64,000 nt of DNA from an uncultured Bacilli bacterium (GTDB lineage: Bacteria; Bacillota_I; Bacilli_A; RF39; UBA660), in contig CAKOKD010000001.1 of the NCBI GenBank assembly GCA_934090935.1, positions 290,571 through 354,570 on the forward strand, given 5' to 3'. A model generated the notes under the pieces. That model saw only the letters and a program-made list of their open reading frames with translations, was not told the DNA's origin and made no database searches. This document shows, in pieces, positions 3,956 through 33,497 of this stretch. The position numbers and the translations under genes were made by a program. How positions within the stretch are numbered: the first letter of the stretch is position 1; each line of letters begins with the position of its first letter.

Positions 3956-4172
3956 TGTAAAGCAATTGATGAAGACGTTAAATAATGATTTTTTATAGAG
4001 AAGCTGTGGGTGGTGCAAACAGTTAAAAATAGTTATTTAAGAATCACTTCTAATGCGACTTAGGGATAAGCTAAGTACGTTTACTGCGTTAAAGTTAATA
4101 AAGTGTGAATTACATTCATAAAATAGGATGGTACCACGGACTTGTTCGTTCCTATGTTATGGATGTTTTTTT
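3956..4172 (+). promoter_or_regulatory. T-box riboswitch leader of ileS
   Basis: Conserved T-box sequence AAATAGGATGGTACCACGG at 4122-4139 followed by a U-run (4165-4172) before the ileS RBS. ileS is a classical T-box-regulated gene in Firmicutes. Stem I, specifier and terminator pairing were not resolved by eye. Confidence 0.6.
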
Positions 4173-4190
4173 ATTGGAAAGGAAATGGTT

Positions 4191-7100
4191 ATGAAAAATT
4201 TTAAAGAACTTGATAAGAGAAAAGCAAGTGAAGTAGAAGAAAGTATCTTAGAAACTTGGAAAAAAGAAGATATTTTAAATGAAACAATTAAAAATAGAAA
4301 AAATGGAAAAAATTGGGTATTCTATGATGGACCAATATATGCAAATGCTAAACCTGGAATTCATCATGTTCTTGCTAAAACAATTAAAGATTCATTTTGT
4401 AAATATCATACAATGAAAGGCGAAAGAGTTTTAAGAAAAATTGGACTTGATACTCATGGACTTCCAATTGAAGTTAATGTAGAAAAGAAGCTTGGTTTTA
4501 AAACAAAAGCTGATATTGAAGCGTTTGGTGTTGAAAATTTCTGCCGTGAATGTAATAAAGCAACAGCATTAAATATTGATGAAATAAATGCTGTTACGGA
4601 TAAAATGGGTCAATTTATTGATTGTGAACATCCTTATGTAACTTGTTCAAATGAATATATTGAATCTGAATGGTGGATTATAAAAGAAATGGACAAAAAA
4701 GGACTTTTATACCATGGTAATAAAGTTTTATGGTATTGTCCTAGATGTGGAACAGAACTTTCTCAAAATGAGGTTTCACAAGGTTATGAAGAAACAAGTG
4801 TTAATACTGTAATCGTACCTTTAAAAAGAGTTGATGCGGATGAATATTTTCTTGCTTGGACTACAACTCCTTGGACTTTAATGGCAAACGTTGCTATATG
4901 TGTTAATCCAGAACTTACTTACATAAAAGTATTATCTCAAGGATACAAATTTATTTTAGCTTCTGCTTTAGCTTCAAAAGTATTAGGTGAAGATTATGAA
5001 GTTCTTGAAACTTATAAGGGATCTGATTTAGTAGGAATAAAATATAAGCAATTGATGCCTTTTGTTCATGTTGAAGGAAAATGTCATGAAGTAATAGCAG
5101 ATAATTATGTTACTGCTGAAGATGGTACAGGAATAGTTCATATTGCACCTGCTTATGGTGAAGATGATAATCGTGTATGTCGTGAAAATGGCATTGGTTT
5201 TGTAAATCCAGTTGGATTAGATGGATGTTATACTGAAGGACCATGGAAAGGAACTTTAGTAACTGATCCTAATCTTGAAATAGAAATCATTAAGTGGTTA
5301 AAAGAAAATGATAAACTATTTAAGAAAATTAAAATAGTTCATGATTATCCTCATTGTTGGAGATGTCATTCACCACTTATAAGTTATCCAAAACCAGCTT
5401 GGTATATTAAGACAACAGCTTATAAAGATAAAATAATTGAAGAAAATAAGAAGATAAATTGGTATCCTGATTATGTTGGAAATAAACGCTTTGCTAACTG
5501 GCTTGATAATATGATTGACTGGGGAATTTCTAGAAATAGATATTGGGGTTGTCCTCTTCCAGTTTGGACTTGTTCATGTGGTAATAAGTGTGTTGTCGGA
5601 TCAATTGATGAATTACAAGAGCTAGTAATTGAAGATGTTGATGTTAGAAAGATGGAATTACATCGTCCTTATGTTGATGAACTTCATGTTAAATGTGATA
5701 AATGTGGAAAATCTATGGATAGAGTCAAAGATGTATTAGATGTTTGGTTCGATTCTGGAGCTATGCCATACGCTCAATATCATTATCCATTTGAAAATAA
5801 AGAATTATTTGAAAGCCAATTCCCAGCTGATTTTATAGCTGAAGGACTTGATCAAACTCGTGGATGGTTCTATGTTTTACTTGTAATTTCAACAATAATT
5901 TCTGGTGAATCTAGTTTTAAAAACGTTGTTGTAAACGATATGGTTCTTGACGGATTTGGTAAAAAGATGAGTAAATCAACTGGTAATATAGTTGATCCTA
6001 TAAATGAGTTGGATGAATACGGTGCAGATATAGTTAGATGGTATATGCTTTCAGTCTCTCCTGTATGGACACCTTTAAAATATGATTCAAAAGGTTGTAG
6101 AGAAGTTCATTCAAAATTCTTTAATCCATTTAAAAACACTTATACATTCTTCCAAACTTATGCTAATATTGATGGAATAGATACAGATGAATGTGATGTT
6201 GCTTATGAAGATCGTGAAGAAATAGATAAATGGCTTTTATCTAAATATAATAAACTAGTTAAAAATGTTACTGATGCTTATGAAGCATATGACTTAAATC
6301 AAGTAGTTAAACAAATAACTTCATTTGTTTCAGAAGATTTATCTAACTGGTATATAAGAAGAAATAGAAATAGATTTTGGAGTAGTGAACTTGATAATTC
6401 TAAAAAATCTGTATACATAACTACTTATGAAGTTTTAATTGGTTTATGTGGATTATGTGCTCCAGTTATTCCTTATATAACTGAAGAAATATACAAGAAT
6501 TTAACTGGTGAGAAATCAGTTCATTTAAGCGATTTCCCTAAATATGATGAAAATTTAATCAATGAAGAAATTGAAGTTAAAATGGATTTAGTAAGAGATT
6601 TAATTTCTACAGGAAGATATGTTCGTGAAGAAACTAAGATAAAAGTGCGTCAACCATTAAGTGAAGCTTTAATTGATGGAAAATATGAAAGTATTTTAGG
6701 AAACTTAGTAAGTTTAATCAATGAAGAATTAAATGTTAAAAAAGTTACTTTTGTTGATGATTTATCTAAATATATGAATTTTACAATTAAACCAAACTTT
6801 AAAGTATGTGGATCTATGTTCGGATCTAAGATGGGCCTTTATAGTGAAACTTTGAAAAATTTAAGTTTAGATGATGAAGAGGCTTTATTGAAAGAAGAAA
6901 CTATTACAGTAGACTTTAATGGTGAAAGACTTGATATAACACCTGAAATGGTTGATGTTAGAATCGATGCTAAGGAAGGATTCAATGTTGGTATGGAAAA
7001 TAATAAATTTATTATTCTAAATACTGAACTTACTCGTGATCTTTTACTTGAAGGTCTTGCTCGTGAATTTGTATCTAAAGTTCAAAATATGAGAAAAACA

Positions 7101-7292
7101 AGTGGGTTAAATATTGAAGATAGAATTAAACTTTATTTCTATGGTGATGATGAAGTAAATGATGCTTTAATAATGTTTAAAGATTATGTTAAAGAAGAAA
7201 CATTAGCAGTAGTTTACGAAGAAAAAGAAAGTGGAGAAGTTGTGGATATCAACGGCCATGACGTTATAATATCAATAGAAAAGAGTGAATAA
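4191..7292 (+). CDS. ileS: isoleucyl-tRNA synthetase (long, type-2-like form)
   Basis: HIGH-like PGIHHVLAKT, KMSKSTGN, a zinc-knuckle CPRCG...CSCG, about 1030 aa. The track start at 4128 lies inside the leader; ATG 4191 (MKNFKELDK) with AAAGGAAA RBS is preferred. Confidence 0.93.
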   Translation: MKNFKELDKRKASEVEESILETWKKEDILNETIKNRKNGKNWVFYDGPIYANAKPGIHHVLAKTIKDSFCKYHTMKGERVLRKIGLDTHGLPIEVNVEKKLGFKTKADIEAFGVENFCRECNKATALNIDEINAVTDKMGQFIDCEHPYVTCSNEYIESEWWIIKEMDKKGLLYHGNKVLWYCPRCGTELSQNEVSQGYEETSVNTVIVPLKRVDADEYFLAWTTTPWTLMANVAICVNPELTYIKVLSQGYKFILASALASKVLGEDYEVLETYKGSDLVGIKYKQLMPFVHVEGKCHEVIADNYVTAEDGTGIVHIAPAYGEDDNRVCRENGIGFVNPVGLDGCYTEGPWKGTLVTDPNLEIEIIKWLKENDKLFKKIKIVHDYPHCWRCHSPLISYPKPAWYIKTTAYKDKIIEENKKINWYPDYVGNKRFANWLDNMIDWGISRNRYWGCPLPVWTCSCGNKCVVGSIDELQELVIEDVDVRKMELHRPYVDELHVKCDKCGKSMDRVKDVLDVWFDSGAMPYAQYHYPFENKELFESQFPADFIAEGLDQTRGWFYVLLVISTIISGESSFKNVVVNDMVLDGFGKKMSKSTGNIVDPINELDEYGADIVRWYMLSVSPVWTPLKYDSKGCREVHSKFFNPFKNTYTFFQTYANIDGIDTDECDVAYEDREEIDKWLLSKYNKLVKNVTDAYEAYDLNQVVKQITSFVSEDLSNWYIRRNRNRFWSSELDNSKKSVYITTYEVLIGLCGLCAPVIPYITEEIYKNLTGEKSVHLSDFPKYDENLINEEIEVKMDLVRDLISTGRYVREETKIKVRQPLSEALIDGKYESILGNLVSLINEELNVKKVTFVDDLSKYMNFTIKPNFKVCGSMFGSKMGLYSETLKNLSLDDEEALLKEETITVDFNGERLDITPEMVDVRIDAKEGFNVGMENNKFIILNTELTRDLLLEGLAREFVSKVQNMRKTSGLNIEDRIKLYFYGDDEVNDALIMFKDYVKEETLAVVYEEKESGEVVDINGHDVIISIEKSE

Positions 7293-7303
7293 CTCTTTTT
7301 TTT
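7279..7303 (+). terminator. intrinsic terminator of ileS (hairpin AGAGTGAATAACTCT plus T8), contiguous with the left end of cassette R1
   Basis: The inverted repeat spans the ileS stop codon and is followed by TTTTTTTT (7296-7303). Confidence 0.65.
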
Positions 7304-7345
7304 ATGCTTTCTAGGTTCTAATTTTGTCGACATTTGTCGGATTTA

Positions 7346-7373
7346 TTGACAATGAAAATTAACTATATATAAT
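7346..7373 (+). promoter_or_regulatory. consensus sigma-A promoter inside R1 (TTGACA-16-TATAAT), immediately preceded by the TGTCGACA palindrome
   Basis: TTGACA 7346-7351, TATAAT 7368-7373. TTGTCGACATTTGTCGG at 7324-7340 is a candidate operator. Confidence 0.6.
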
Positions 7374-7469
7374 ACAAACTCGAGAAGCAGAAAAAGATGC
7401 TTATCACTTCCAAACTAGAGGCTAAATTATTCGGGGTTTTGGTTAAGGAGTACGAGAGGAAGTGATACG

Positions 7470-7547
7470 ATGAAGAAGGATAATCAAATAAGATTACTTT
7501 ATCTAATCGTTTTTATATTGTTAATAGTAATTCTAAAATTATTATAG
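7470..7547 (+). CDS. small hydrophobic peptide (25 aa, MKKDNQIRLLYLIVFILLIVILKLL), candidate type I toxin
   Basis: ATG preceded by GAGGAAGTGATACG. The SD region GGAAGTGATA is complementary to upstream TATCACTTCC, predicting SD sequestration. ORF conserved in all three R copies. Confidence 0.5.
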   Translation: MKKDNQIRLLYLIVFILLIVILKLL

Positions 7548-7551
7548 CAAC

Positions 7552-7640
7552 AAAAAAAAGCATCTTTATTCTACTGAATAAGGATGCTACACCCATAAGT
7601 GGTAAGCATCAGCCTCAAAAGAAACTTCTGCTTCTCACTA
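7552..7640 (-). ncRNA. putative antisense sRNA (antitoxin candidate) convergent to the small ORF
   Basis: On the minus strand a TATATT -10 sits about 7 nt upstream of GTGAGAAGCAG, with a -35-like TTACAT 17 nt further up. The transcript would end at hairpin GCATCCTTATTCAGTAGAATAAAGATGC plus U8. The + strand has an A-run before this hairpin and no U-run after it, so it terminates minus-strand transcription only. Confidence 0.4.
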
Positions 7641-7750
7641 AATTAAATATAGCATAATCAAAATAAAATGTAAATATTTACACATAATAGTATTGTTATA
7701 CCGAATAAAAAATTAATCTATGGTACAATTAAAATAGAATGGTGTGTATT

Positions 7751-9061
7751 ATGAAGAGAAAGAGTGCATTAGTATTTACAATTTTATTATTAGCGGTGGG
7801 ATTTGCTGCCGTGTCAACAACTTTAGTAATAAATGGGTCTGCAAAAGTAAGTGAAAATACAGAGGATTTTTCTGTAATATTTACCAAGGCTTCATTAGAT
7901 GGAACAGATGTATATGCAAATATAGTTGATGATACTAAAAAGATAATAAATTTTTCAACAAATGAATTAAAGACAATAAATCAAACAAGTGTGTTAAATT
8001 ATGAAGTAACAAATAATTCAAGCAATTATGATGCTGAAGTTCAAGTAACTTGTAAATTAAAAGATGGTGGGTCTGCTAAATATACAAGTATCAAAAATGA
8101 ACTAGAAGGAAATGCAACAATTGTAAAAGCCAAAGAAAGCTTAAATGGAACATTAACAGTTAACTTAAAAAAAACTGCTACAGAAGAAGTAAATGAACAA
8201 TATGTTTGTGAACTAACGTTTAATGCAGTAGAGAGAACTCAGTTGGGAAATAATCCAGCTATTGATAAGCTAATATCTTTAGCTAATTCTGAGGAAATAA
8301 ATTCATATGAAAATGGAAATAAAAATCAATTATATGTTTTTAATCATGAGCAAACTAAACAAACAGAAGCCCTAAGCGACTATCGTTTTATTGGCGATAA
8401 TCCATATAATTATATAAAGTTTAGTGGTGAAACATGGAGAATATTAGGTATCTTTGATATTGATGGAGAAAAAAAGATTAAAATAATAAAAAATGATACT
8501 TTGGATAGTTCATACGCTTGGGATACTAACGGAAAAAATAATTTTATAATTTCAAGTTTAAATAATTATTTAAATGAAAATTATTATGAAACTTTGGATA
8601 AAAATTATATATCAAAAACAAAAATCTACTTAGGTGGAACTGATATGATGCAATATGTAAAGGCAAATGAATGGTATAGTCATGAAAGAAGTAATAAAGT
8701 GTATTCTGGAAACCCAAGTTATTATAATGACGCATATGTTTCTTTAATGTATCCATCGGATTTTGCTTATACTTATGCCTATGGAATTGACAATGAGTGT
8801 TTTAATAATGGATTTGGATGTGATGTTTCATCAGGAAGAACTAATAGTTGGATGTATATTGGTAAAAATATGGAAGCATTTATAACTCCTGATTCAAGTT
8901 CAAGTAATCAAATTTATAGAATGAATTCTTCCAGTGGTTATAATAAAAGTACATCTTCAACTTTAATGTATATAAGACCAGTTGTATATTTAAATAGCAA
9001 TGTGAAATTTATTTCAGGAGATGGATCAAGCACAAATCCTTATAAATTAGATACAAATTAG
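7751..9061 (+). CDS. secreted family member A: conserved N-terminal module plus lectin-like C-terminal domain
   Basis: Probable start MKRKSALVFTILLLAVGFAAV (the track's 7739 start adds MVCI). N-module is highly similar to the 14603 and 56406 genes (FSVIFTKASLDG.DVY..VDDTKKII.F......QTSVLNYEVTNNSSNYDAEV.VTC...YVCELTFNAVER). C-terminus ...WMYIG...YIRPVVYL...GSSTNPYKLDTN. Own promoter with extended -10 TGGTACAAT; no poly-G. Confidence 0.8.
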   Translation: MKRKSALVFTILLLAVGFAAVSTTLVINGSAKVSENTEDFSVIFTKASLDGTDVYANIVDDTKKIINFSTNELKTINQTSVLNYEVTNNSSNYDAEVQVTCKLKDGGSAKYTSIKNELEGNATIVKAKESLNGTLTVNLKKTATEEVNEQYVCELTFNAVERTQLGNNPAIDKLISLANSEEINSYENGNKNQLYVFNHEQTKQTEALSDYRFIGDNPYNYIKFSGETWRILGIFDIDGEKKIKIIKNDTLDSSYAWDTNGKNNFIISSLNNYLNENYYETLDKNYISKTKIYLGGTDMMQYVKANEWYSHERSNKVYSGNPSYYNDAYVSLMYPSDFAYTYAYGIDNECFNNGFGCDVSSGRTNSWMYIGKNMEAFITPDSSSSNQIYRMNSSSGYNKSTSSTLMYIRPVVYLNSNVKFISGDGSSTNPYKLDTN

Positions 9062-9097
9062 ATGAAACTAAAAAAGAATAATATATTAAAAAAACAC

Positions 9098-9125
9098 ATG
9101 ATTTCATGTGTTTTTTTTAATGTAT
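9098..9125 (+). terminator. intrinsic terminator after gene A
   Basis: AAACACATGATTTCATGTGTTT hairpin followed by a T-run. Confidence 0.65.
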
Positions 9126-9206
9126 TTTAATTTGCAAAAAGTTGTATAAAATAATTTGCAAAATTAAAAAAATTTTTTTCAAAGTAGTAATTTTCAACAA
9201 AAGAAA

Positions 9207-9240
9207 TTGACAATCGGGGGGGGTATTATAAAATAAAAAT
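9207..9240 (+). promoter_or_regulatory. family promoter with a G8 homopolymer in the spacer (TTGACA-atc-G8-TATTATAAAATA)
   Basis: G-run at 9216-9223 between a -35-like TTGACA (9207-9212) and an A/T-rich -10 region. Same architecture at 14547, 34011 and 56354. Confidence 0.6.
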
Positions 9241-9257
9241 AGATGAGGTGTGTTTAA

Positions 9258-10019
9258 ATGAAGAAAAGTGCAATAATAGTTGTAATTGTTTTTATGATGA
9301 TTGGATTTGCAGCAGTAAGTACGTCATTAATAATAAATAGTAATATAAAAGTATCAAAGAATGAAACGGACTTTGATGTATATTTTTCAAAGGCAAGATT
9401 GGATACAAAAGATGTATATGAAAGTGTAATAAGTCAAGATAAAAAGACAATAATATTTAATACAAATAATTTAAGTAAAGTAGGAGATAAACAGTACTAA
9501 CATATGAAGTAACAAATAATTCAAACAACAAGGAACTTCATTAAAACAAAATGGTACATATACAAGAATGTATGATACTGAGATTGGATATTTAGCAAGT
9601 ACATCAAGAAATATAAGTGGAATATATGATATGTCCGGTGGAGCACATGAATATATGTCAGTATATACCTTAGATAACTCTGATAATAGTGGAATAACTT
9701 TTACAAATTATGGCTCAAAGTATTATGATGTTTATAATGAATCGAGTATGACAACCAGTTACCAATGTAGAATATTAGGAGATGCAACGGAGAAATGGGG
9801 CCATTTACAACTTTGAAATCAATTGAAAGCAATAGCAGTATAAAAAGATATGTATCAAGTCGGTTTGCATCCTATGCATATTTTGTTTCCTCTTCAAGTC
9901 CATTTTTTGCACGCGGTGGTGATTATGGGCATGGTATATTTGCTGGGCAACTTTATTTTGGTGGTGCTTCTGGAGAAGCATATAGCTATGTTGGTTTTCG
10001 TCTAGTTTTAACACCTTAA
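9258..10019 (+). pseudogene. chimeric, frameshifted family pseudogene D (N-module of the 56406 type fused to the C-terminal region of the 57608 type)
   Basis: 9258-9500 encodes MKKSAIIVVIVFMMIGFAAVSTSLIIN... then stops. TYEVTNNSNN follows out of frame. 9568-10019 in two frames matches the C-terminus of the 57608 protein (TENISGVYDMSGG.HEY...YQ.RILGDAT...GFRLVLTP). Confidence 0.8.
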
Positions 10020-10030
10020 TAAAGGATGTT

Positions 10031-10061
10031 TCAATAGAAAAGAGTGAATAACTCTTTTTTT
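10031..10061 (+). repeat. 31-bp exact direct duplicate of the ileS 3' end and terminator (7272-7302)
   Basis: TCAATAGAAAAGAGTGAATAACTCTTTTTTT occurs at 7272-7302 and again at 10031-10061, bracketing R1 + gene A + pseudogene D. Confidence 0.85.
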
Positions 10062-10105
10062 CATGTATAAATGATGCTATAATAATAATAGAATAGAGGG
10101 TAATT

Positions 10106-10633
10106 ATGAAGTATGATGATTTAGTTAATATTTTATATCAAGATAATCTTAACTGGGTTTATTCAGTTATTACAACTCTAGATAAAGAAAAAATTGATAA
10201 AAAGGAAAAGTATATAAGTGATCCTTATCAATTTAATAATTTTTTAGTTCTAGGTTTCTATTTTATGAATTTATATATTATCAGTAATTTAAAGGAATAT
10301 AAATTCTATGATGCAACAAAACTTTTAACGACTGTTGTTTTTTCTGCAAGTACACATAATAAAGAAAAATTGATGGGAGTTTATAAAAAGGAAATCGATC
10401 TAAAAAGAATTGTTGAGCAATATAATTCGCTGGTAAGAAAAACGAAGGAGTTTGCGCCTACAGATGGATTAAAAGCAAGAATTGTTGCTATAGATGAGAT
10501 TTATAGAAGAATGTATGATGTGTTTAATAAAAGACATTTTGATGATTTCATCAGGGTTGTTATGTCGTCATTCCCTGAATATGAAAAAAAGATAGATCAA
10601 AGTTTAAAAGATTATGCAAAAAGAACAGTATAG
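10106..10633 (+). CDS. hypothetical protein
   Basis: ORF with AGAGGGTAATTATG start region; no recognised motifs. Confidence 0.45.
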   Translation: MKYDDLVNILYQDNLNWVYSVITTLDKEKIDKKEKYISDPYQFNNFLVLGFYFMNLYIISNLKEYKFYDATKLLTTVVFSASTHNKEKLMGVYKKEIDLKRIVEQYNSLVRKTKEFAPTDGLKARIVAIDEIYRRMYDVFNKRHFDDFIRVVMSSFPEYEKKIDQSLKDYAKRTV

Positions 10634-10645
10634 GAGGAGTTAGTC

Positions 10646-11101
10646 TTGGTAAATGATGAAAAAATAAAACAAGTGATAAGCGCCATTAAAGAAAATGGTT
10701 TAAAATCATTTAATGATGAATCGCTTGCTAAATTATTATCGATATTTACTGCTGAAGAATTTGATGAATTTCTAGAAAAGTCCTATTCTGAACTTGGTGG
10801 AGTAAGTGCAGTTGTTAGAATTAATTCAATTAGACCTTATGTTAGTTTCTTGGTAAATAAAGAACTCAATAAGATTTACAATTCGGATATATATAAGTTG
10901 TTTTTAGAATCATTAAAAAGAGGAGAATATTATGCTTATTTCAAGTCTTTAACAATAGAGGAATTAGCTAGTTTAAAAAAATATTTAACATATAATTATT
11001 CAAGCAGTGAGGAGTTAGCTAAAAGTGCAACAAAAAAAGTAATTAGTATGATTACTAAAGAGATAAGATTAAGAGAACAAAACAAAAACTTGGTTTTTTA
11101 A
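10646..11101 (+). CDS. hypothetical protein
   Basis: GGAGGAG RBS upstream; no recognised motifs. Confidence 0.45.
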   Translation: MVNDEKIKQVISAIKENGLKSFNDESLAKLLSIFTAEEFDEFLEKSYSELGGVSAVVRINSIRPYVSFLVNKELNKIYNSDIYKLFLESLKRGEYYAYFKSLTIEELASLKKYLTYNYSSSEELAKSATKKVISMITKEIRLREQNKNLVF

Positions 11102-11970: not shown

Positions 11971-14388
11971 GTGATGAGTGTGAGCGATTTAAAAGAACAC
12001 TTTAAAATGAACTATGATATACTTCCAAATATCTCAAACATAGTCAAAGGAAATAAATATCGTATAACAGTGCTTTCAGAAATACTAGTTCGTCTTGAAT
12101 ATTCGGAAACAGGTAAGTTTGAAGATCGTCCAACTGAACTTGCAATAAATAGAAAATTTAATCCAGTGAAGTTTGAAAAACATGAGGATAATAAATATTT
12201 GACAATCAAAACTAAATATTTCACTTTAACGTATCAAAAGGAAATGCCTTTTTATGGTTCAAAAGTTAGTCCAGATCAATATATGAGAGTTAATTTAAAT
12301 GATACTGATAAGTTTTGGTATCCACTTCATCCTGAAGTTAGAAACTTCTTGGGTACGGCTTATTCTCTTGATGGAGCAAATGGGCATGCAAAACTTAATA
12401 AGGGCCTTTATTCGACAGATGGTTTTGTTTCTTTAGATGACTCTGAAAGTTTAATTTTTAATGAGGATGGTTCTTTAGGTCGTAGAACGGATAAAAGAGT
12501 TGATATATATCTTTTTATGTATAAGCGTGATTTTGGAGCTTGCTTAAAGGATTATTTTACTTTAACGGGATATCCTCCGTTAATTCCAAGATATGCTTTA
12601 GGTGTTTGGTGGAATAGAAATACTGCTTATAATTCAAAAGATTTAGAAAAATTGGTGTTTGATTTTAATAAATATCGTGTTCCACTTTCAATAATTATGC
12701 TTTCTGATAAATGGCATAGAAAAAATGAAGGATTAGTATCAGGTTTTACTTTTGATGAGAAATTGTTTAAAAGGCCTAAAAGAATGGCCGATTATTTACA
12801 TAATAAGAATGTAAGGCTTGCTGTTAAAGTGAATCCGGTTTTGGGAATAAGTGATAAAGAGGATTATTTTATACCATATAGAAACGGAGCTAATTTAGGG
12901 GATAAAAGTGGAATAGTTCCATTTAATGTCTTTAATAAAGATGAATTGAACTCTTATTTTGATAATTTAATTCATCCACTTATGAATTATGGTGTTGATT
13001 TTTTCTGTGTAGATTATAATAATTCAAAAGATTTAACTACTTTAAGAGCATTGACTCATTATCATTTTGATGATTTTAAGCAGCTTACAAATAGAAGAGG
13101 TATTGTTCTTGCAAGAGATGGTCTTTTAGCCGCGCATAGATATCCAATTCATTATACAGGAGAGATGCTTGTATCTTGGAAAAATTTAGAGATGCTTCCA
13201 TCTTTTAATAGCACAGCATCAAATATTGGACTTTCATGGATTTCAAACGATATTGGTGGTTATACTGGGGGAATTGAAGAAGGAGAACTTTATTCAAGGT
13301 TTGTTCAATTTGGATGTTTTTCTCCAATTCTTCGTCTTTCATGTGATGAAAGTAGATATTTTAAAAGAGAACCATGGGCTTGGGATACTAAAACTCAATC
13401 AGTGGTTATCAAGTATTTAAGACTAAGGCATTCATTAATTCCATATCTTTATAGTGAAGCTTATAGATATTCAAGAATAGGTCTTCCGCTTGTTCAACCA
13501 ATTTATTATAGATATCCGGAAATATATGATGAACCTTTATATAGAAATGAATACTACTTTGGAACCAATTTGTTTGTTGCGCCAATTACAAGCAAAAAGG
13601 ATGTTTTGATGGATAGATCCGTGTTAAAACTTTTTTTACCTGATGGAATTTGGTATGATTTTACAAATGGTAAAAGATATGTTGGCGGAAAACGTTATAC
13701 AACATTTTATAAAGAAGAAGATTATCCGGTGTTCGCGAAAGCAGGAACTATTATACCAATGGATATATTAAATGATAATGATCTTAATAATACTAATCCA
13801 TCTAAATATATGGAAATTCAAGTATTTCCAGGAGCATCAAGTACGTATGAGATGTATGAAGATGATGGAAATTCATCTCTTTATGAACAAGGATTTTATC
13901 TTTTAACGAGCATAGATTACACTTATCAAGCAAACAATTTCACGGTTATAATTAGACCTGTAGCTGGAAAAAGTGGAATAATTCCAGAGATGCGTTCGTA
14001 TAGAATAAGATTTAGAAATACAAGAGAAGCTGATGAAGTACAAGTGCATTCTGGTGAAGAGATAGTTAAAATGGTTAATTCATATATAGATGATTCAGAT
14101 TTTGTTGTTGAGCTTCCACCTTTATCTACATTGAAACAGATAACAATTAATTGTAAGGGAAGAGATATTGAAATTGATGCTTTAAGACTTATTAATGATG
14201 ATATTGATTCCATACTTAATGATTTACCAATTGAGACTAAAACAAAGGATAAACTAGGAGAAATCTTGTTAAGTGATATGGATATAAAACAAAAAAGAAT
14301 AAAAATACGTAAATTAAGAAAAGAAAAATTAAATCAAAAATATATCAATCTTTTCTTAAAGTTACTGGAATATATAGCTGAAGTGTAA
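11971..14388 (+). CDS. glycoside hydrolase family 31 (alpha-glucosidase or alpha-xylosidase type)
   Basis: GH31 hallmarks: WWNRNTAY, KVNPV, FFCVDYNN, WISNDIGGYTGG; 805 aa, no signal peptide. Confidence 0.8.
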   Translation: MMSVSDLKEHFKMNYDILPNISNIVKGNKYRITVLSEILVRLEYSETGKFEDRPTELAINRKFNPVKFEKHEDNKYLTIKTKYFTLTYQKEMPFYGSKVSPDQYMRVNLNDTDKFWYPLHPEVRNFLGTAYSLDGANGHAKLNKGLYSTDGFVSLDDSESLIFNEDGSLGRRTDKRVDIYLFMYKRDFGACLKDYFTLTGYPPLIPRYALGVWWNRNTAYNSKDLEKLVFDFNKYRVPLSIIMLSDKWHRKNEGLVSGFTFDEKLFKRPKRMADYLHNKNVRLAVKVNPVLGISDKEDYFIPYRNGANLGDKSGIVPFNVFNKDELNSYFDNLIHPLMNYGVDFFCVDYNNSKDLTTLRALTHYHFDDFKQLTNRRGIVLARDGLLAAHRYPIHYTGEMLVSWKNLEMLPSFNSTASNIGLSWISNDIGGYTGGIEEGELYSRFVQFGCFSPILRLSCDESRYFKREPWAWDTKTQSVVIKYLRLRHSLIPYLYSEAYRYSRIGLPLVQPIYYRYPEIYDEPLYRNEYYFGTNLFVAPITSKKDVLMDRSVLKLFLPDGIWYDFTNGKRYVGGKRYTTFYKEEDYPVFAKAGTIIPMDILNDNDLNNTNPSKYMEIQVFPGASSTYEMYEDDGNSSLYEQGFYLLTSIDYTYQANNFTVIIRPVAGKSGIIPEMRSYRIRFRNTREADEVQVHSGEEIVKMVNSYIDDSDFVVELPPLSTLKQITINCKGRDIEIDALRLINDDIDSILNDLPIETKTKDKLGEILLSDMDIKQKRIKIRKLRKEKLNQKYINLFLKLLEYIAEV

Positions 14389-14390
14389 GA

Positions 14391-14422
14391 AACATGTATG
14401 AATTTACATGTTTTTTTTTGGT
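14391..14422 (+). terminator. intrinsic terminator after the GH31 gene
   Basis: AACATGTATGAATTTACATGTT hairpin plus T9. Confidence 0.65.
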
Positions 14423-14546
14423 TTTAAATTTATTGAATAAGAATACTAAATAAACTCAAGTAGCAAGCATAAGTTAAAAAATATTTTGTTTCTCTTGATA
14501 AACCAAAATATAAAATGCAAAAAAAGTGTAAACAAGGAAGTTTTGC

Positions 14547-14582
14547 TTGAAAATCGGGGGGGGGTATTATAAAATAAAAAAG
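14547..14582 (+). promoter_or_regulatory. family promoter with a G9 homopolymer (TTGAAA-atc-G9-TATTATAAAATA)
   Basis: G-run at 14556-14564. Confidence 0.6.
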
Positions 14583-14602
14583 TAAAGGAAAGTAGGTATA
14601 AT

Positions 14603-16114
14603 ATGAAAAAGAAGAGTATGCTTATAGTAGCAATTATATTAATGTCAATTGGATTTGCTAGCATTTCAACGACATTAATAATAAACGGGAATGCAAACGT
14701 AAGTGAAAATCAAGATGACTTTTCAGTTATCTTTACAGCTGCAACATTAGATGGAAAGGATGTATATTCATCAGTAGTAGATGATACAAAGAAGATAATA
14801 ACATTTGAAACATCAGAATTAAAAACATTAAATCAAACATCAGTATTAAATTATGAAGTAACAAATAATTCAAGCAACTATGATGCAAATGTAAATGTAA
14901 CATGTGTACCAAAGGAAGGAACAATAGCAAAATATACAAGCATCAAAAATAAATTAGAAAACGAAGCAACAGTTGTAAAAGCAAAAAGTTCAGTAAATGG
15001 AACATTAACAGTAACACTAGATAAGGTAGCAACTGAAGCAGTTACAGAAGAATATACATGTAAGTTAGAATTTAATGCAGTCGAAAGAACTGAAATTGCA
15101 GTAGGAACAACTAATTTATATAATTTAATAAAAAATAATGCTGATACTAAAACCGTAATAGATTATAAGGTACGTTCAGGAGTAAGTGGAACAAATGGAA
15201 TATATACAACAACTGCTACTGAAGGTAATGTACCAGTATATTATTATAGAGGAGCAGCTGATAAAGTAAATAATAATATAATATTTAATAATATGTGTTG
15301 GAAGATAATAAGAACAACTGAAAACAATGGAGTAAAACTAATATATAACGGAACACCAACAGATGGCAAATGTGAAACTCAAACAGGAGAAGCAACTCAA
15401 ATAGGAACAAGTGCATTTAATACAAATTATACCGATAATGCATATGTTGGCTATATGTATGGAACAGCAGGAAGCAACACCTATGCAGCAACTCATGCAA
15501 ATACAAATGACTCAACAATAAAAACATATATAGATAATTGGTATAAAGCTAATTTTGATGAAATAACAACATCAAAATTGGAAGATACAGTATTCTGTAA
15601 TGATAGAAGTACAAAAGCATATGATGCAAAGACAATTGGAGAAACTTCCTTTTCATCCTTTGGTTCATTAGGATATGGGAAAAGTGCATCATTGTATGGA
15701 GCAGCACATCGAGCATCATATTGGTCGAACAATCCAAATCCAAGTTTAGTGTGTCAAAATCAAAATGATAAATTTACCGTAGATAGTAAAAATGGAAACG
15801 GAAAACTAACATATCCAGTTGGATTAATAACATTAGATGAGGTAGTGCTTGCAGGATTTAATACAAAATATTCCAATACAGGTGATTATGATGATGTAAC
15901 AAATTACTTATATACAAATAGCATTTATTGGACATTCTCCCCTGTGATGCTGGATGCTCGTGGTTATGCTTGTGTTGGTTATGTCTATAGTGCTGGCTAT
16001 GTGCACTATGACTATGTGGGCGGTGCTCGTGGGGTCCGTCCAGTAGTTTCGCTTATCAGTGGCACACTTGTAACTGGTTCTGGTACAACAACTAACCCAT
16101 ATGTGGTTGAATAA
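14603..16114 (+). CDS. secreted family member B: conserved N-module plus longer lectin-like C-terminal domain
   Basis: MKKKSMLIVAIILMSIGFASISTTLIINGNANVSEN...VTCVPK...YTCKLEFNAVER. C-terminus ...WKIIRTTENNGVKLIYNG...LITLDEVVLAG...YWTFSPV...GVRPVVSLISG...GTTTNPYVVE. Confidence 0.85.
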   Translation: MKKKSMLIVAIILMSIGFASISTTLIINGNANVSENQDDFSVIFTAATLDGKDVYSSVVDDTKKIITFETSELKTLNQTSVLNYEVTNNSSNYDANVNVTCVPKEGTIAKYTSIKNKLENEATVVKAKSSVNGTLTVTLDKVATEAVTEEYTCKLEFNAVERTEIAVGTTNLYNLIKNNADTKTVIDYKVRSGVSGTNGIYTTTATEGNVPVYYYRGAADKVNNNIIFNNMCWKIIRTTENNGVKLIYNGTPTDGKCETQTGEATQIGTSAFNTNYTDNAYVGYMYGTAGSNTYAATHANTNDSTIKTYIDNWYKANFDEITTSKLEDTVFCNDRSTKAYDAKTIGETSFSSFGSLGYGKSASLYGAAHRASYWSNNPNPSLVCQNQNDKFTVDSKNGNGKLTYPVGLITLDEVVLAGFNTKYSNTGDYDDVTNYLYTNSIYWTFSPVMLDARGYACVGYVYSAGYVHYDYVGGARGVRPVVSLISGTLVTGSGTTTNPYVVE

Positions 16115-16247
16115 AAATCAATAATTCTAAGATAACTTTGGTTATCTTTTTTTATGTTTCATAAATCTAATGTGAATATAAATCACTACTAAAAAGGAGA
16201 TAATGTATGATATGTTTTAACTGTAAAAATATGTAGTTGGAGGAAAT

Positions 16248-16901
16248 ATGAAAAGTGCAGTTAAAGTGGTTAATTTAAATAAAAATTATTATGTGCATAA
16301 AAATACAATTAGTGTATTTAAAAACTTAAATTTAAATTTTTATTATGGAAAGATGTATGGAATTATAGGACATTCTGGTTGTGGAAAGTCGACTTTAATA
16401 AAAATCATTGGGTTATTGGAAAACTATGATTCTGGAAATATTTTCATTAATAATCAGGATATAAGTAAAACAAGTTTGATTGATCAAGCAAAATTAAGAA
16501 ATGAAAAAATAGGATTTGTATTTCAAGATTATTTATTGGATGATTATTTAAATGTTTACGATAATATTTTACTTCCAACGTTGTTAAATAAAAAAGATAA
16601 TAAAAACAATATTATTGATTTGGCTAAAACATATGGAATTGAAAATAGATTAAAACATTTTCCAAAAGAATTATCTGGAGGAGAGCAAGCACGCGTTGCT
16701 CTTATTAGAGCTATAATTAATGATCCTGATATTATATTGGCTGATGAACCAACTGGAAATTTGGATGGAAAAAATGAAGTTCTTGTTTTAAATAATCTAA
16801 AAAAAATTGCTAGAAATGGAAAATGTGTTATTGTTGTAAGTCACTCTAAAGATATAGAAAAATATGTTGATGAAATAATTGATTTGGAAGGAGAACTTTA
16901 A
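16248..16901 (+). CDS. ABC transporter ATP-binding protein (MacB/FtsE-like)
   Basis: Walker A GHSGCGKST, signature LSGGEQARV, Walker B ILADEPT. Confidence 0.85.
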   Translation: MKSAVKVVNLNKNYYVHKNTISVFKNLNLNFYYGKMYGIIGHSGCGKSTLIKIIGLLENYDSGNIFINNQDISKTSLIDQAKLRNEKIGFVFQDYLLDDYLNVYDNILLPTLLNKKDNKNNIIDLAKTYGIENRLKHFPKELSGGEQARVALIRAIINDPDIILADEPTGNLDGKNEVLVLNNLKKIARNGKCVIVVSHSKDIEKYVDEIIDLEGEL

Positions 16902-18069
16902 GATGTATTTTGATTATGTAAGAAAACATATATTAAATTGGAAAAATTTTATCTTATTTCTAATCTTTCTATTTACCAATTTAGCAATTTTATTATCAAT
17001 AAGTGTTGGATATACATTTGTTTTGTTAAAACAATCATATTTTTATAAATATAGCGGATTTAGAACTATCATTGTTGATTCTAATGATATTAATAATTTG
17101 AAAAAAATAGATCATGTACTTGCTGTAGAAGATGCAAAGTATAGAAATCCTCTAACTTTTTCTTCTAAAGACTTCGATTCAGATTTAAAAGTTGAAATTT
17201 TAATTAATGCTTTGATATCTAAAGAAGATTTAAAAATAAAAAGAGGTAAGATGATAAAAAATGCTAATGAAGCTATATGTTCAGATACTTTTTTTCCATA
17301 TGAAATAGAAGTAAGAAACGGAAAAACTATTTTTAATAAAAGTAGAATCATAAGTGGTAAATCGATATTAAATAAGAGCTTTAGTATATATGAAAATGAT
17401 GAAAAAATAGCAACATATGATATAGTTGGTACTTTTGATACTAAAAAAACGATGAACGCTTTGAATTCTTGTTATATATTAAAAGACGATTTCGAAAAAA
17501 TTATTCAAGATGAAAGTGACTTAGAACAATCTACTTCAAATAGTAATGAAAGTGGTTCTATGCTATTAGTTGATAAATATGAAAATGTAGAAAACGTTTT
17601 AAAGGAACTAAAAAAAAGAAATGATTCTTATTATGTTGTATCAGAACTAAATGAAGGATATATTAAAATTCTTACTTATTTTCCTATATTTGCTTCAATA
17701 ATAATCTCTCTTTTATTTATGATAGTTTTGGAATCATTTTTGTCAAAAAAAATAAAATATAGATCAAAGTGTAATGCAATTTTAAAGTCTATTGGATTTG
17801 AAAATAGAAAAATTGAAAATATAAATATTTTAGAAAACGTTATATTATTTTTTATTTCATTTGTTATTTCAATTATTTTATACTTAATTTTATTCTTTTA
17901 TATAAAAAATGTTTTGCTTGCGGAATATATTTATGATGGAACTTTTATACCTTTTTCAATTATTCCAATCATTCTTTCTTTTATTTTAGAAGTTATTATA
18001 ATTCTTTTGGTAAACAAAAGAGTATTACGTTTTAAATTAAATAAAAGTGTAGAGGAAATTCTTTTATGA
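16879..18069 (+). CDS. ABC transporter permease, FtsX-like
   Basis: N-terminal TM, large extracytoplasmic loop, C-terminal TM bundle; translationally coupled to the ATPase gene. Confidence 0.6.
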   Translation: MIWKENFKMYFDYVRKHILNWKNFILFLIFLFTNLAILLSISVGYTFVLLKQSYFYKYSGFRTIIVDSNDINNLKKIDHVLAVEDAKYRNPLTFSSKDFDSDLKVEILINALISKEDLKIKRGKMIKNANEAICSDTFFPYEIEVRNGKTIFNKSRIISGKSILNKSFSIYENDEKIATYDIVGTFDTKKTMNALNSCYILKDDFEKIIQDESDLEQSTSNSNESGSMLLVDKYENVENVLKELKKRNDSYYVVSELNEGYIKILTYFPIFASIIISLLFMIVLESFLSKKIKYRSKCNAILKSIGFENRKIENINILENVILFFISFVISIILYLILFFYIKNVLLAEYIYDGTFIPFSIIPIILSFILEVIIILLVNKRVLRFKLNKSVEEILL

Positions 18070-18902
18070 AATATTTAATATTTTTTAAAGAAACTTTTAA
18101 TAAAAAATCTACTAGAAATTATTTCTTTATAATACTTTCTCTTCTTATAGTTATTGATGTTTCATTTATTTTTTATAAATACAGCGGTAAGATTCTAAAT
18201 GATAATTATAAAAATTCGTACTTCTTGTTAGAACTTAATACAAAAAATAAAATAAATCTTATAAAAAATTATAGTAATATTGAAGTTTATCAAAAATGTA
18301 TTTTTAATGAAAATGAGATTATTGTTGAAGATAAGTCTAGTAAATATTTTCCTAAAAGTGTGAAACAAGTTAATAAATCAGAATTTGCAAAATATAAGTT
18401 TGATAATAGATATTTCATTACATTAAAGAAATGGATAGATTATAATGATTTTTGCGACTTATTGATTAAAAACGAGATTGATTATGATTTTTATATAGTA
18501 AAGAAAAATGAGTTGAATTTTGAAAATTATTATCAATATTTCATTTATGTTTTGTTTATTGTATGTTTTATATGTTTATTAGTTTTTGTTATTAGTATCA
18601 TCAATATTTTAATTGATGAAAAAGAATTTTGCAAAATTTTATATATGGTGGGATATAACTATTATTTGATTAATTTTATGACAGTTATAAAAATATTTGT
18701 GTTTATGTTATGGTTAGTTTTGATAAATTTTTTATTTCAATTAACTTTAGGTTATTTTTTAAAGTTTTTTGATTATTCAATGATGCTTACAAACATAGCT
18801 ATCTTAATTTTATCAATTATAATAGCAATGTTTTGGATAGTAGGAAGGAGTATTAAAAAGAAAGGTGCTTTTATAATCAATATTGCAGTAAATCATGTAT
18901 AA
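18066..18902 (+). CDS. second membrane permease subunit (FtsX-like topology)
   Basis: Overlapping start; N-terminal TM, loop, C-terminal TMs. Confidence 0.5.
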   Translation: MKYLIFFKETFNKKSTRNYFFIILSLLIVIDVSFIFYKYSGKILNDNYKNSYFLLELNTKNKINLIKNYSNIEVYQKCIFNENEIIVEDKSSKYFPKSVKQVNKSEFAKYKFDNRYFITLKKWIDYNDFCDLLIKNEIDYDFYIVKKNELNFENYYQYFIYVLFIVCFICLLVFVISIINILIDEKEFCKILYMVGYNYYLINFMTVIKIFVFMLWLVLINFLFQLTLGYFLKFFDYSMMLTNIAILILSIIIAMFWIVGRSIKKKGAFIINIAVNHV

Positions 18903-18939
18903 TAATATTAAATCAATTTATTTTTTAGGTGGTGACTAA

Positions 18940-20010
18940 ATGGATGCAAAGAAAATAGGTGATTTAATCAAAAAATTAAGAGAGCAGAAAGGATTAAGTC
19001 AGTATAAATTAGCTGAAGCACTTTTTGTTGATAGAACTGCAGTAACAAAATGGGAAAATGGAAAAACAATTCCAAGCGTTGATATGTTGTTAGTGATTAG
19101 TAACTACTTTAATATTTCAATAGATGAACTTGTTTATGGAAGTTTGAAGAATAATGAAAACGATGAAAAAATAGAAAAATACCCAGCTGAATTATTACAT
19201 GAAAAACATAAATTAAGAAAAAATTTAGCAATTGTAATATTTTTCTTGATAATTATATCTTTATTATTTTTCTTCTATTATTTTTTAACTACTTATAATT
19301 CAATAAAAATTTATAAAGTTAGTTTAAAATCTGATTCTATTGAACTTGCTGATAGTTATTTTATAAAAACTAGAGAAAAAGCATACCTTAATATTAACTT
19401 TGTTAATAATGATTTGAATATTGATAAAATTAAAATTTATTATTTGGATAAAAATAAAGAGAAGATAATTATAAATAGTAACTATAATAATAACTTTACT
19501 ATTGTAGATTATTATGGCTATTCTGAATATTTTGATTTTAAGAGAATAACTTATATTTTAAATAATATGTATATTAACGTCTCTGGAGAAAAAATTGATC
19601 AGGTTCTAAAAATCAATTTTAAACAAGAATATTCTAATTCAAAATTATTTTTATTTAAAGATAAGAAATCTACTGATGAAAAAGAATTATATGTAATTAC
19701 TTCGCATTTTGATGATCAAAACAATAAGTTTGAAAAGATTTGTAAAAATAATAATTGCGCGATGGATGTAAAATATAATCAAATATCATATAATTTATTT
19801 TATGATAAAGATACAAGAGAAGTTGTTTTATATAATTTAAAAGAGAACATAATGTATGAATACAATACTGAATATGAGATATTTAATGTTTCAAATAAAA
19901 GTTCAAATTATAGTGTTAATGTATCTGATAAAAAATGTTTACAGAACAACTGTGATTCTTATGAAATTGATTATGAATTGTTTTGGAATATAATAAATAA
20001 TTCAATTTAA
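18940..20010 (+). CDS. XRE-family helix-turn-helix regulator with a TM segment and extracytoplasmic domain
   Basis: HTH QYKLAEALFVDRTAVTKWENGKTIPSVDMLLVIS, then hydrophobic LAIVIFFLIIISLLFFFYYFL. Confidence 0.7.
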   Translation: MDAKKIGDLIKKLREQKGLSQYKLAEALFVDRTAVTKWENGKTIPSVDMLLVISNYFNISIDELVYGSLKNNENDEKIEKYPAELLHEKHKLRKNLAIVIFFLIIISLLFFFYYFLTTYNSIKIYKVSLKSDSIELADSYFIKTREKAYLNINFVNNDLNIDKIKIYYLDKNKEKIIINSNYNNNFTIVDYYGYSEYFDFKRITYILNNMYINVSGEKIDQVLKINFKQEYSNSKLFLFKDKKSTDEKELYVITSHFDDQNNKFEKICKNNNCAMDVKYNQISYNLFYDKDTREVVLYNLKENIMYEYNTEYEIFNVSNKSSNYSVNVSDKKCLQNNCDSYEIDYELFWNIINNSI

Positions 20011-20239
20011 AATTACTAGCAATACTTAAATATTTGAATTTGAAAAAAGTGTAAAAGATTATTATGACGCGATGAATGGTGTAAAATTATCTTTATAATT
20101 TATTCATAATTTATGAAAACTAAATTAGCTGTTGCCTAATTAGTTTTTTTTTGAATTTATATTAATCCTTTTTATCTTAAAATTATAGAATATATTATTT
20201 CTTTATGTTATAATTAGTTAAGAATAGGAGTATGAGTGT

Positions 20240-24478: not shown

Positions 24479-24698
24479 ATTTATAACAATATAAATTAAA
24501 ATGACTATAATTAAGAGTGTATAACTCTTTTTTTTGTATTTTAGGTTCTAATTTTGTCGACATTTGTCGAGTTTGTTGACAAGAAAAATTAACTATATAT
24601 AATAACCAATTGAGAAGCAGAGAAAGATGCTTATCACTTCCAACTAGAGGCTAAATATTCAGGGTTTTGGTTAAAGGAGTACTAGAGGAAGTGATACG

Positions 24699-24776
24699 AT
24701 GAAAAAAGATAATCATATAAGATTACTTTACTTAATCGTTTTAATATTGCTAGTAATAATTTTAAAATTATTATAG
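24699..24776 (+). CDS. small hydrophobic peptide (25 aa, MKKDNHIRLLYLIVLILLVIILKLL), candidate type I toxin, copy 2
   Basis: Same RBS-sequestering arrangement as R1. Confidence 0.5.
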   Translation: MKKDNHIRLLYLIVLILLVIILKLL

Positions 24777-24863
24777 GAAAAAAAGCATCTTTATTCTACT
24801 GAATAAGGATGCTACAACAAACACGTGGTAAGCATCGGCCTCAAAAGGAACTTTTGCTTCTCA
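24777..24863 (-). ncRNA. putative antisense sRNA, copy 2
   Basis: Minus-strand TTGAAA-17-TATATT upstream of GTGAGAAGCAAAAG; ends at the conserved hairpin plus U-run. Confidence 0.4.
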
Positions 24864-24917
24864 CTAAATAAAATATAACATTTTTTAAAAGTGTTTTCAA
24901 TATATAAGGTAATAATT

Positions 24918-24982
24918 ATGCTTATAGTAGCAATATTACTAATGAAGATGGAACAAGTACAAATCCATATGTAGTTTTATAA
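24918..24982 (+). pseudogene. ghost of a family gene: start fragment MLIVAILLM fused to the C-terminal remnant DGTSTNPYVVL*
   Basis: ATGCTTATAGTAGCAATATTACTAATG matches codons about 6-14 of the 14603-type gene. GATGGAACAAGTACAAATCCATATGTAGTTTTATAA in another frame matches the family C-terminal tail (GTTTNPYVVE). Confidence 0.7.
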
Positions 24983-33470: not shown

Positions 33471-33497
33471 TAATCGCAGTAATGCGATTTTTTTTAT
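33471..33497 (+). terminator. intrinsic terminator after the 32280 gene
   Basis: AATCGCAGTAATGCGATT plus T8. Confidence 0.65.

Follow-up and report, generated by a model that had tools for sequence, protein, structure and literature searches.

A duplicated ileS gene end and terminator, most likely a recombination scar at an ancient gene-exchange hotspot in uncultured gut Erysipelotrichales

Introduction

Genomic islands and cis-mobilizable elements (CIMEs), such as those of the ICESt1/ICESt3 type and the islands at tRNA genes, are bounded by direct att repeats that lie at a gene's 3' end. In homology-facilitated illegitimate recombination (HFIR), the joints show microhomologies of 3-10 bp, and a circle with truncated homology that integrates by a single crossover leaves a copy of this homology on each side of the insert (PMC3240628). 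Mobile-element genes are missing from many transfer hotspots, whose contents turn over via recombination in the flanking core genes (PMC5635113). Here we analyzed a locus that shares features with all of these, in a stretch of 64,000 nucleotides (hereafter the window) from an uncultured Bacilli bacterium (GenBank assembly GCA_934090935.1, contig CAKOKD010000001.1, positions 290,571 to 354,570 of the forward strand). Two copies of a 31-bp repeat, comprising the 3' end of the isoleucyl-tRNA synthetase gene ileS and its terminator, enclose a 2.7-kb block made up of a type I toxin-antitoxin-like cassette (R1), a surface or secreted family gene (gene A) and a decayed gene of a second subfamily (pseudogene D). 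This arrangement is most likely a recombination scar at an ancient gene-exchange hotspot, not an active mobile element.

Results

The Repeat and Its Two Copies

An earlier note on the window, made from its letters alone, had described a 31-bp perfect direct repeat whose second copy holds ileS coding nucleotides. The 31-mer TCAATAGAAAAGAGTGAATAACTCTTTTTTT is indeed exact at 7272-7302 and 10031-10061 and occurs nowhere else in the whole 64-kb window; no third copy was found there even when up to three mismatches were allowed, and 100 dinucleotide-preserving shuffles of the window yielded no match. The pair is the sole exact direct repeat of at least 16 nt within 12 kb outside the R cassettes and family genes. 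A generic terminator family, which the note had named as the alternative, is rejected, as the window holds two exact copies and one near copy only; metagenome matches outside the lineage are isolated 21-mers in unrelated contexts. The features at the site are as follows.

4191 to 7292, forward strand: ileS, isoleucyl-tRNA synthetase (Pfam tRNA-synt_1 and Anticodon_1; open reading frame (ORF) end at 7292)
7272 to 7302, forward strand: left repeat copy, with the seven terminal ileS codons including the stop (S-I-E-K-S-E-stop), the terminator hairpin and the T-run
10027 to 10065, forward strand: right repeat copy, TGTT, the exact 31-mer (10031-10061) and CATG, an ileS remnant of about 35-39 nt
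10075 to 10633, forward strand: ORF175 (the 10106 ORF, 175 aa; 10106-10633) with its promoter, the conserved right neighbour of the site, with 87 homologues
10075 to 10083, forward strand: extended -10 promoter of ORF175 (TG 10075-76, TATAAT 10078-83), read from the sequence

The ileS stop codon TAA (7290-7292) lies inside the left copy, and the terminator hairpin at 7277-7301 (stem 10 bp, loop 5 nt, -9.2 kcal/mol) is followed by a T-run. The right copy stands 11 nt past the stop of pseudogene D and 44 nt ahead of the 10106 ORF, and is predicted to act as a terminator ahead of the ORF175 promoter. Both copies continue past the T-run as (T/C)ATG, which gives 35 nt with one mismatch. According to ORF175 homologues and genome records, the lineage belongs to uncultured gut Erysipelotrichales, with 'Firmicutes bacterium CAG:582' (L009) as the nearest named relative. 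Compared with the ileS of relatives, the match of the right copy runs 4-6 nt further leftward (TGTT/TTGTT); for CAG:582-like genomes, where ileS ends in ...CTT GTT TCA ATA GAA AAG AGT GAA TAA, it covers 35-37 nt (TTGTTTCAATAG...) and exceeds the window's own repeat. Only 31 nt are visible in the window because its ileS has ATA ATA where relatives have CTT GTT or ATG ATT. The right copies of the window, L011, L049 and L058 start with ...TGTTTC(AA/CT/GA)TAGAAAAG. The right copy is a genuine remnant of the ileS 3' end, and the further leftward match together with the shared (T/C)ATG points to an original duplication of about 35-39 nt. Annotators should not take the ileS-like stretch at 10027-10065 for a functionally meaningful gene fragment.

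Empty and Filled Sites in Relatives

With ORF175 as the anchor of all locus comparisons, the site was compared among same-species contigs (L001-L005 and L061-L066), 28 species-representative loci anchored on this gene and 24 metagenome loci chosen by the core GAAAAGAGTGAATAACTCTTT. The empty site that the note had proposed to look for exists in L006, L008, L009, L010, L014, L038, L041, L051 and L055-57, where ileS is followed by exactly one repeat copy, 54 nt and ORF175, with nothing else between. The downstream sequence of the empty sites is collinear with the right copy and ORF175 promoter of the window, and positions 10029-10200 of the window are 96-97% identical to the empty L008-L010. Since these relatives carry one copy and no insert, the block is accessory, as claimed in the note, and one copy represents the unoccupied state. 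Any given empty site may be ancestral or the result of secondary deletion.

In the window's species, all contigs that were read (22 and 23 contigs) carry the block, while its content varied, as in L065. Over 1.7 kb downstream, the filled L058 (about 100%) and the filled L049 (99%) match the empty L009, L055 and L057, and the empty L014 is 99-100% identical to the filled L007, L012, L013 and L046. On the ileS side, the filled L039 falls inside the diversity of empty CAG:582-like strains (97.6-99.2%). Two sister species are thus polymorphic for the block, with filled and empty alleles on flanks of 98-100% identity. L044 was considered as a third filling and rejected, for its chromosomal surroundings differ and ileS is followed by a convergent gene.

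An imported diverged segment starting at the repeat was also considered, as the first BLAST comparison gave about 95% identity left and about 85% right of the block. A breakpoint at the repeat was rejected because the drop is confined to particular genes (identity is low in ORF175, ORF151 and the GH31 gene, 97% in rpsD) and because the ~170 bp next to the junction on its right match empty relatives at 96-97%. ORF175, ORF151 and the GH31 gene (10200-11100 and 12000-14388) show about 80% identity to L009/L010, compared with 94-98% for ileS, rpsD and ezrA, and the 3' half of the GH31 gene is nearer to the more distant L012/L013. The low-identity segments point to either mosaic ancestry or fast evolution.

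Two Classes of Right Junction

The junction between D and the ileS remnant (a-type) is orthologous in the window, L011, L049 and L058. In L011, homology to the window extends without interruption from within D across the remnant to ORF175. Drift has affected six unconstrained remnant bases (TCAATA, TCCTTA, TCGATA), and the hairpin is unchanged. As a junction common to at least three species-level lineages and with drift, it marks an old event, not a recent one; it would predate the split of these lineages or have been passed between them.

A second junction class (b-type) was detected in L012, L013, L007, L046 and L042, where a different family gene (...NPYEVNE-stop) runs into (AATA)GAAAAGAGTGAATAACTC-T7 and then ORF175. 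The joint sequence is (AATA)GAAAAG, the AATA is common to the stop region of the family gene and ileS, and the stop codon lies within this possible microhomology. At the a-type joint, a weak resemblance to the 3' untranslated regions (UTRs) of D paralogues (TG-T..AAT) was found by eye. The left copy of the second class is intact in L042 and eroded in L012 and L013, the latter of which keeps 11 nt of the left end of R. An ATT/ATA difference between left and right in the L012 lineage was tried for telling donor from recipient and dropped, since the ATA may be the stop region of the family gene. The ileS terminator of L012 (8153-8180) is without its T-run and that of L013 without its 3' arm; ileS transcription is therefore predicted to run into the inserted family gene.

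An Old Hotspot between ileS and ORF175

Among relatives with 50-58% ORF175 identity, the gap between ileS and ORF175 ranges from ~80 nt to 3.1 kb and contains family genes and methyltransferase, helix-turn-helix (HTH)/IrrE, PIN, PGA_cap and SDR genes. In two of them (L022 and L032), a diverged R-type cassette directly follows the genome's own ileS terminator, with a family gene next in L022, and no duplication of the ileS end was found in either. Because the order of terminator and then R is found in distant relatives without duplication, the left junction is ancient and the right junction alone is peculiar to the close clade. The locus thus has a left junction collinear with the old arrangement and a novel D/remnant joint on the right, the pattern of an HFIR-type event.

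The Block between the Repeats

The block contains the following features.

7308 to 7680, forward strand: R1 cassette, type I toxin-antitoxin-like (repeat families D3, D4, D7 and D16; alignment of R copies)
7346 to 7373, forward strand: R1 promoter, sigma-70, 12/12 match
7470 to 7547, forward strand: R1 hydrophobic ORF, 25 aa
7561 to 7588: R1 hairpin, T-run on the minus strand
7674 to 7646, reverse strand: R1 convergent antisense promoter, extended -10 (TG)
7751 to 9061, forward strand: gene A, 436 aa, of a signal-anchored surface/secreted family with several paralogues in the window
9088 to 9117: gene A terminator
9207 to 9234, forward strand: promoter of D, TTGACA-16-TAAAAT, 11/12, with a G8 tract (9216-9223) in the spacer
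9258 to 10019, forward strand: pseudogene D, decayed D-type family gene of the second subfamily (ORF fragments; intact orthologues)

Pseudogene D keeps the N-terminal ~90 aa and C-terminal ~160 aa and shows an internal deletion and frameshifts, whereas a 578-aa orthologue is intact in L011. An intact copy also exists in the same-species strain L065, where R1 is followed by D, gene A is missing and the left repeat copy has one single-nucleotide polymorphism. Gene A had no Pfam or NCBIfam match, and naming gene A, D, ORF175 and ORF151 via NCBIfam/Pfam was given up as no families were found; other paralogues of the family genes carry DUF6273 or the ALK_LTK glycine-rich domain. The repeat hairpin as the D family's own terminator was rejected, given that intact paralogues end in different hairpins.

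The promoter motif of D recurs upstream of three further family genes, and its tract is G8 in every strain seen. Tracts of G8-G9 lie upstream of four family genes (9216-9223, 14556-14564, 34020-34027 and 56363-56370), in conserved promoter spacers of the form TTGA(C/A)A-ATC-Gn-TATTATAAAAT. Their length differs among same-species contigs (G9 vs G8 at 14556, G10 vs G8 at the R0 locus, see below), which looks like slipped-strand phase variation of surface-protein expression.

R Cassettes and the Copied Hairpin

R is ~370 bp long and present in at least four copies per genome, each just past a terminator and just before a family gene. Besides R1, these are:

24538 to 24906, forward strand: R2, with a diverged copy of the ileS hairpin upstream at 24513-24535
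33508 to 33880, forward strand: R3, with an upstream terminator (33476-33500) unrelated to the ileS hairpin
L061 7117 to 7480: R0, the fourth copy, just left of the window

At the sequence level, R is predicted to have the parts of a type I toxin-antitoxin module, namely a hydrophobic ORF, a sequestered Shine-Dalgarno (SD) sequence, a convergent RNA promoter and a terminator. The R1 folds have z-scores of -5.1 and -3.8, with the SD of the 25-aa ORF predicted to pair with the 5' end of the mRNA. The architecture is kept in diverged copies, and the toxin variants differ between species. R had no Rfam match at E <1 and its five peptide variants had no Pfam match, which places it outside the described type I families (Fst, TxpA, Ldr etc.) by these searches. 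No match was found in plasmid, phage or viral collections, and a vehicle of these kinds was rejected.

The observations of the earlier note on the R cassettes proved accurate: R2 and R3 begin 10-25 nt from a terminator T-run, and the R2 hairpin AAGAGTGTATAACTC-T8 is one base off the ileS hairpin. Ahead of R0 stands GAAAAGAGTGAATAACTC-T8-ATGCTTTC, the exact sequence of the ileS-R1 junction. This flank encodes the last four codons and stop of a cadherin-like gene and includes 15 nt of ileS coding sequence. In the species, three loci thus carry the hairpin together with R, and the 34 nt that flank them on the left are identical. CAG:582-like strains have the same hairpin-R0 arrangement with their own spacer variant; within genomes, R0 and R1 are homogenised, hairpin and ileS codons included. 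The EKSE C-terminus is confined to cadherin-like orthologues of the close clade, whose tails otherwise differ, and the ileS of distant relatives ends in ...(I/V)EK(N/I). Three genomes have an ileS-like flank at R0 despite an empty ileS site (L051; L048 with L057; L050 with L055), which fits secondary loss of the block, although the copying could have gone in either direction.

In a systematic check of all R copies, a duplicated terminator was found at two of about eight distinct R sites, namely ileS and R2 of L012, the latter flanked by a 34-nt duplication (88% identical) of another, palindromic terminator. An obligatory target duplication for R insertion is therefore rejected. The suggestion in the earlier note that the hairpin may be part of the mobile unit stands insofar as the hairpin travels with R, while a discrete unit found no support.

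Several further observations concern R and its neighbours. At the R left end (7324-7340 of the window), tandem half-sites TTTGTCGACATTTGTCG were found, and in diverged R-types (L032 9107-9127) AATGTGACA occurs twice at the equivalent place, just upstream of the toxin promoter; they may form a putative operator for some regulator. The R copy of L006 is flanked by a 35-nt direct repeat (97%; 9901-9935 and 10321-10355) including the R right end, with the second copy at the contig end, which may reflect a former tandem copy or the assembly. Same-species strains differ in whether R0 is followed by the 575-aa D-type gene (L061 7552-9279 vs L062 8909-9308), a further presence/absence polymorphism beside an R cassette. 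After R2 (24917-24982), there is an internally deleted family gene with its 5' end fused to its 3' end, in which MLIVAI... (18-nt exact match to 14617) is joined to ...GTSTNPYVVL-stop. L006 and L012 lack the 430-aa gene at 23186-24478, whose right boundary in the window is the ileS-like hairpin; in both, R2 directly follows the aminotransferase gene.

Mobility Machinery and Element Hallmarks

A search of the block, the 64-kb window and all filled gaps revealed no integrase, transposase or Xer-like gene, and a nearby enzyme of these types was rejected as the cause, although a trans-acting one may be encoded elsewhere in the genome. The single IstB-like match is the DnaI helicase loader beside DnaB/DnaD. 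A large serine recombinase (Resolvase/Recombinase/Zn_ribbon) was detected in one same-species strain (L063 1-842); this insertion lies ~9 kb upstream of the window start and is unlinked to the ileS block. By inspection, the 31-mer is unlike what we take to be the Firmicutes dif consensus.

The site agrees with a genomic island or CIME in that the flanking repeats hold the 3' end of the target gene and the empty site has one copy. The conserved ends and fixed core of an island were not observed: the repeat boundaries vary over 25-39 nt, the right ends of the inserts differ (the 3' UTR of a D-type gene vs the stop codon of another family gene), and the left ends are R or other sequence. Similarly, transposon, insertion-sequence (IS) or miniature inverted-repeat transposable element (MITE) ends were not found, as there are no shared terminal sequences and the duplication is variable (25-39 nt) and restricted to two of ~8 R sites; no transposase was found in the regions searched.

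Surroundings of the Locus

One more feature belongs to ileS.

3957 to 4156: T-box leader of ileS (RF00230, 100 bits)

The 65 nt at the 3' end of this T-box (4113-4177) recur with 75% identity at 52804-52868, upstream of HAD-hydrolase and tyrS genes, probably as a second T-box below the Rfam gathering score. A 5.8-kb segment at 14388-20170 (family gene, ABC transporter, 278-aa ORF and HTH regulator) is missing in L006, where the GH31 gene is followed by ezrA; L010 has only its family gene and L009 only the transporter/regulator part, without terminator duplication.

Discussion

A recombination origin of the scar

The best explanation of the locus, to which we give a probability of roughly 0.55, is one illegitimate joint combined with one homologous exchange (HFIR-like or single crossover). 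The duplication of ~35-39 nt would have arisen once, long ago, as R and family genes joined the ileS-ORF175 spacer. A DNA fragment from a genome with the old order of ileS, terminator, R and family genes would have recombined homologously at its left end, in ileS or the terminator, and its right end (the 3' UTR of a D-type gene) would have been joined illegitimately, possibly by HFIR, some 35 nt before the resident terminator ends. Equivalently, an illegitimate joint might first have closed the fragment into a circle, which then integrated through a single crossover within the short stretch of ileS homology. An old collinear left side and a class-specific, sequence-independent right joint are what a one-sided homologous/illegitimate event predicts. 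As an outcome, ileS would stay intact, the incoming genes would gain a terminator and the ORF175 promoter would stay insulated.

After this event, the filled allele may have persisted or spread via homologous recombination in the flanking core genes, and the content of the block would have turned over through gain or loss of gene A and decay of D. The hairpin would be kept while the rest drifts because both copies remain useful terminators. We infer that deletion through the direct repeats permits precise loss and regenerates the empty site. The R copies would provide dispersed homology, with leftward conversion tracts from R carrying the hairpin and 15 nt of ileS coding sequence. No dedicated recombinase would be involved in any of these steps.

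Several points weigh against this scenario. The joints cluster within ~14 nt of the 5' base of the hairpin (a-type, b-type, R0 and R2 copies), which is unexpected for random illegitimate joints, so that selection or hairpin structure is needed as a bias. The cause could be selection (the terminator kept, only short repeats stable) or hairpin-limited DNA ends, and a trans-acting, structure-specific activity is possible. Moreover, duplication of a whole terminator recurs, with R2 of L012 flanked by an entire unrelated one, and the microhomology of the a-type joint is weak and judged by eye. EKSE-stop with the hairpin may have been copied either from ileS to the cadherin-like gene or in reverse.

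Other explanations

Site-specific integration in trans, with the ileS 3' end and terminator as att site and the blocks as non-autonomous CIME-like cassettes, appears unlikely. Here, a tyrosine or serine recombinase encoded elsewhere would act, and a carried gene 3' end would restore ileS. Direct repeats of 25-39 nt at a conserved gene 3' end, with one copy in empty sites, are expected from such integration, as are two different fillings at the same site with the same flanking core, the co-existence in two species of filled and empty alleles whose backgrounds are nearly identical, and the duplicated terminator at a second site (R2 of L012). It is harder to reconcile with the sole recombinase being the unrelated serine recombinase of a single strain, with none in the block, the 64 kb or the filled gaps, and with identity boundaries that differ by junction class around ends that are not conserved. 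In addition, most R sites lack the duplication, the left copy is merely eroded in L012 and L013, and distant relatives fill the same gap without duplication.

Shuttling by RecA alone is improbable to a similar degree. It holds that circles of hairpin, R and family gene form between two hairpin-R units and re-integrate at any hairpin copy by Campbell-type single crossover, with the hairpin as portable homology. The hairpin and R at three loci with identical 34-nt left flanks, and the homogenised R copies within genomes, agree with shuttling, and single-crossover integration duplicates the homologous segment (PMC3240628). However, the right copy has 10-14 ileS-specific nt upstream of the hairpin, and the circle must therefore stem from an ileS site that was filled before, so that the first event goes without explanation. 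In addition, repeats of 25-39 bp come close to the lower length limit of RecA-dependent exchange.

It is quite doubtful that terminators are the insertion sites of non-autonomous cassettes (hairpin, type I toxin-antitoxin module and surface genes of the family, some of which have poly-G promoters), with a trans-acting or host activity that recognises the hairpin and, on insertion, duplicates the entire terminator (25-39 nt), which would later serve for excision. If true, surface-protein cassettes would be reversibly gained and lost within species. Very unlikely is a structure-directed staggered break, in which the terminator palindrome (e.g. an extruded hairpin/cruciform that is cut) is nicked at both ends, DNA is captured and the overhangs are filled in to give a target-site duplication of terminator length, for although the duplicated segments are whole terminators (at ileS the A-tract, hairpin, T-run and few nt; at R2 of L012 the 34-nt palindromic one) and the joints cluster at the hairpin base, the a-type duplication overshoots the palindrome by 10-14 nt on one side only, the left junction is pre-existing and widespread, no enzyme is known or was found, and the duplication is sporadic (2 of ~8 sites).

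We therefore return to the one-sided recombination event. The earlier note had seen the footprint of an insertion or recombination event, and this was largely right, except that the event is old and the element not demonstrably mobile. Its idea of a discrete or recently active mobile unit does not hold: no recombinase was found, the right ends differ by class, only two of ~8 R sites show a duplicated terminator, the junction is common to several species with drift, and R after the ileS terminator is ancient, as distant relatives have it.

The locus is a sequence-resolved case of accessory genes entering and leaving a chromosome without mobile-element machinery, at one intergenic spot between core genes that is a hotspot across a family-level lineage of uncultured gut Erysipelotrichales. 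A single old event is recorded in the duplication of the gene end with its terminator, and the same duplication would offer a simple route to precise loss within species. Additionally, a multi-copy toxin-antitoxin-like cassette can apparently drag neighbouring DNA, here a terminator together with a few codons, which now form the ends of two unrelated genes. Should a mechanism, and not selection, underlie the clustering of joints at hairpins, terminators would count as structural hotspots where DNA is joined illegitimately.

Comparison with known systems

The R cassettes resemble Fst/par, Fst-Sm/srSm and TxpA/RatA of Firmicutes (PMC3543317, PMC4147584) in the strong promoter, the hydrophobic peptide (24-30 aa in R), the SD sequestered by the mRNA 5' end, the convergent small RNA promoter, the shared hairpin terminator and the multicopy intergenic location. 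They differ from these convergent modules in having no sequence match to any Rfam/Pfam family and, unlike par, whose 5' repeats are complementary, their 5' repeats are inverted in DNA and hence of the same sense in both RNAs.

With islands and CIMEs, the ileS block shares repeats of tens of bp that include a housekeeping gene 3' end, an intact gene and an empty site with one copy, whereas it has no integrase in cis or nearby, no conserved ends and variable repeat boundaries, and its insert is 2-3 kb of chromosomal family genes only. The hotspots without mobile genes (PMC5635113) are alike in that the gap between ileS and ORF175/rpsD holds different accessory genes per lineage, without integrase or transposase and with flanks that show signs of mosaic ancestry. 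Unlike them, the ileS hotspot is marked by a specific scar (gene end and terminator in two copies) and was repeatedly filled by one type of module, the type I toxin-antitoxin-like cassette with family genes, some of which have poly-G promoters.

In HFIR, a similar length of resident DNA is usually lost, whereas ~35 nt are duplicated here; the joints at ileS cluster by a terminator hairpin, and the case is known from comparative sequence alone. It is like HFIR and single-crossover circles (PMC3240628 and the studies of S. pneumoniae, Acinetobacter and P. stutzeri that it cites) in having one homologous side, one sequence-independent joint and no element-encoded enzyme, and in both a short homologous segment may end up duplicated around the insert.

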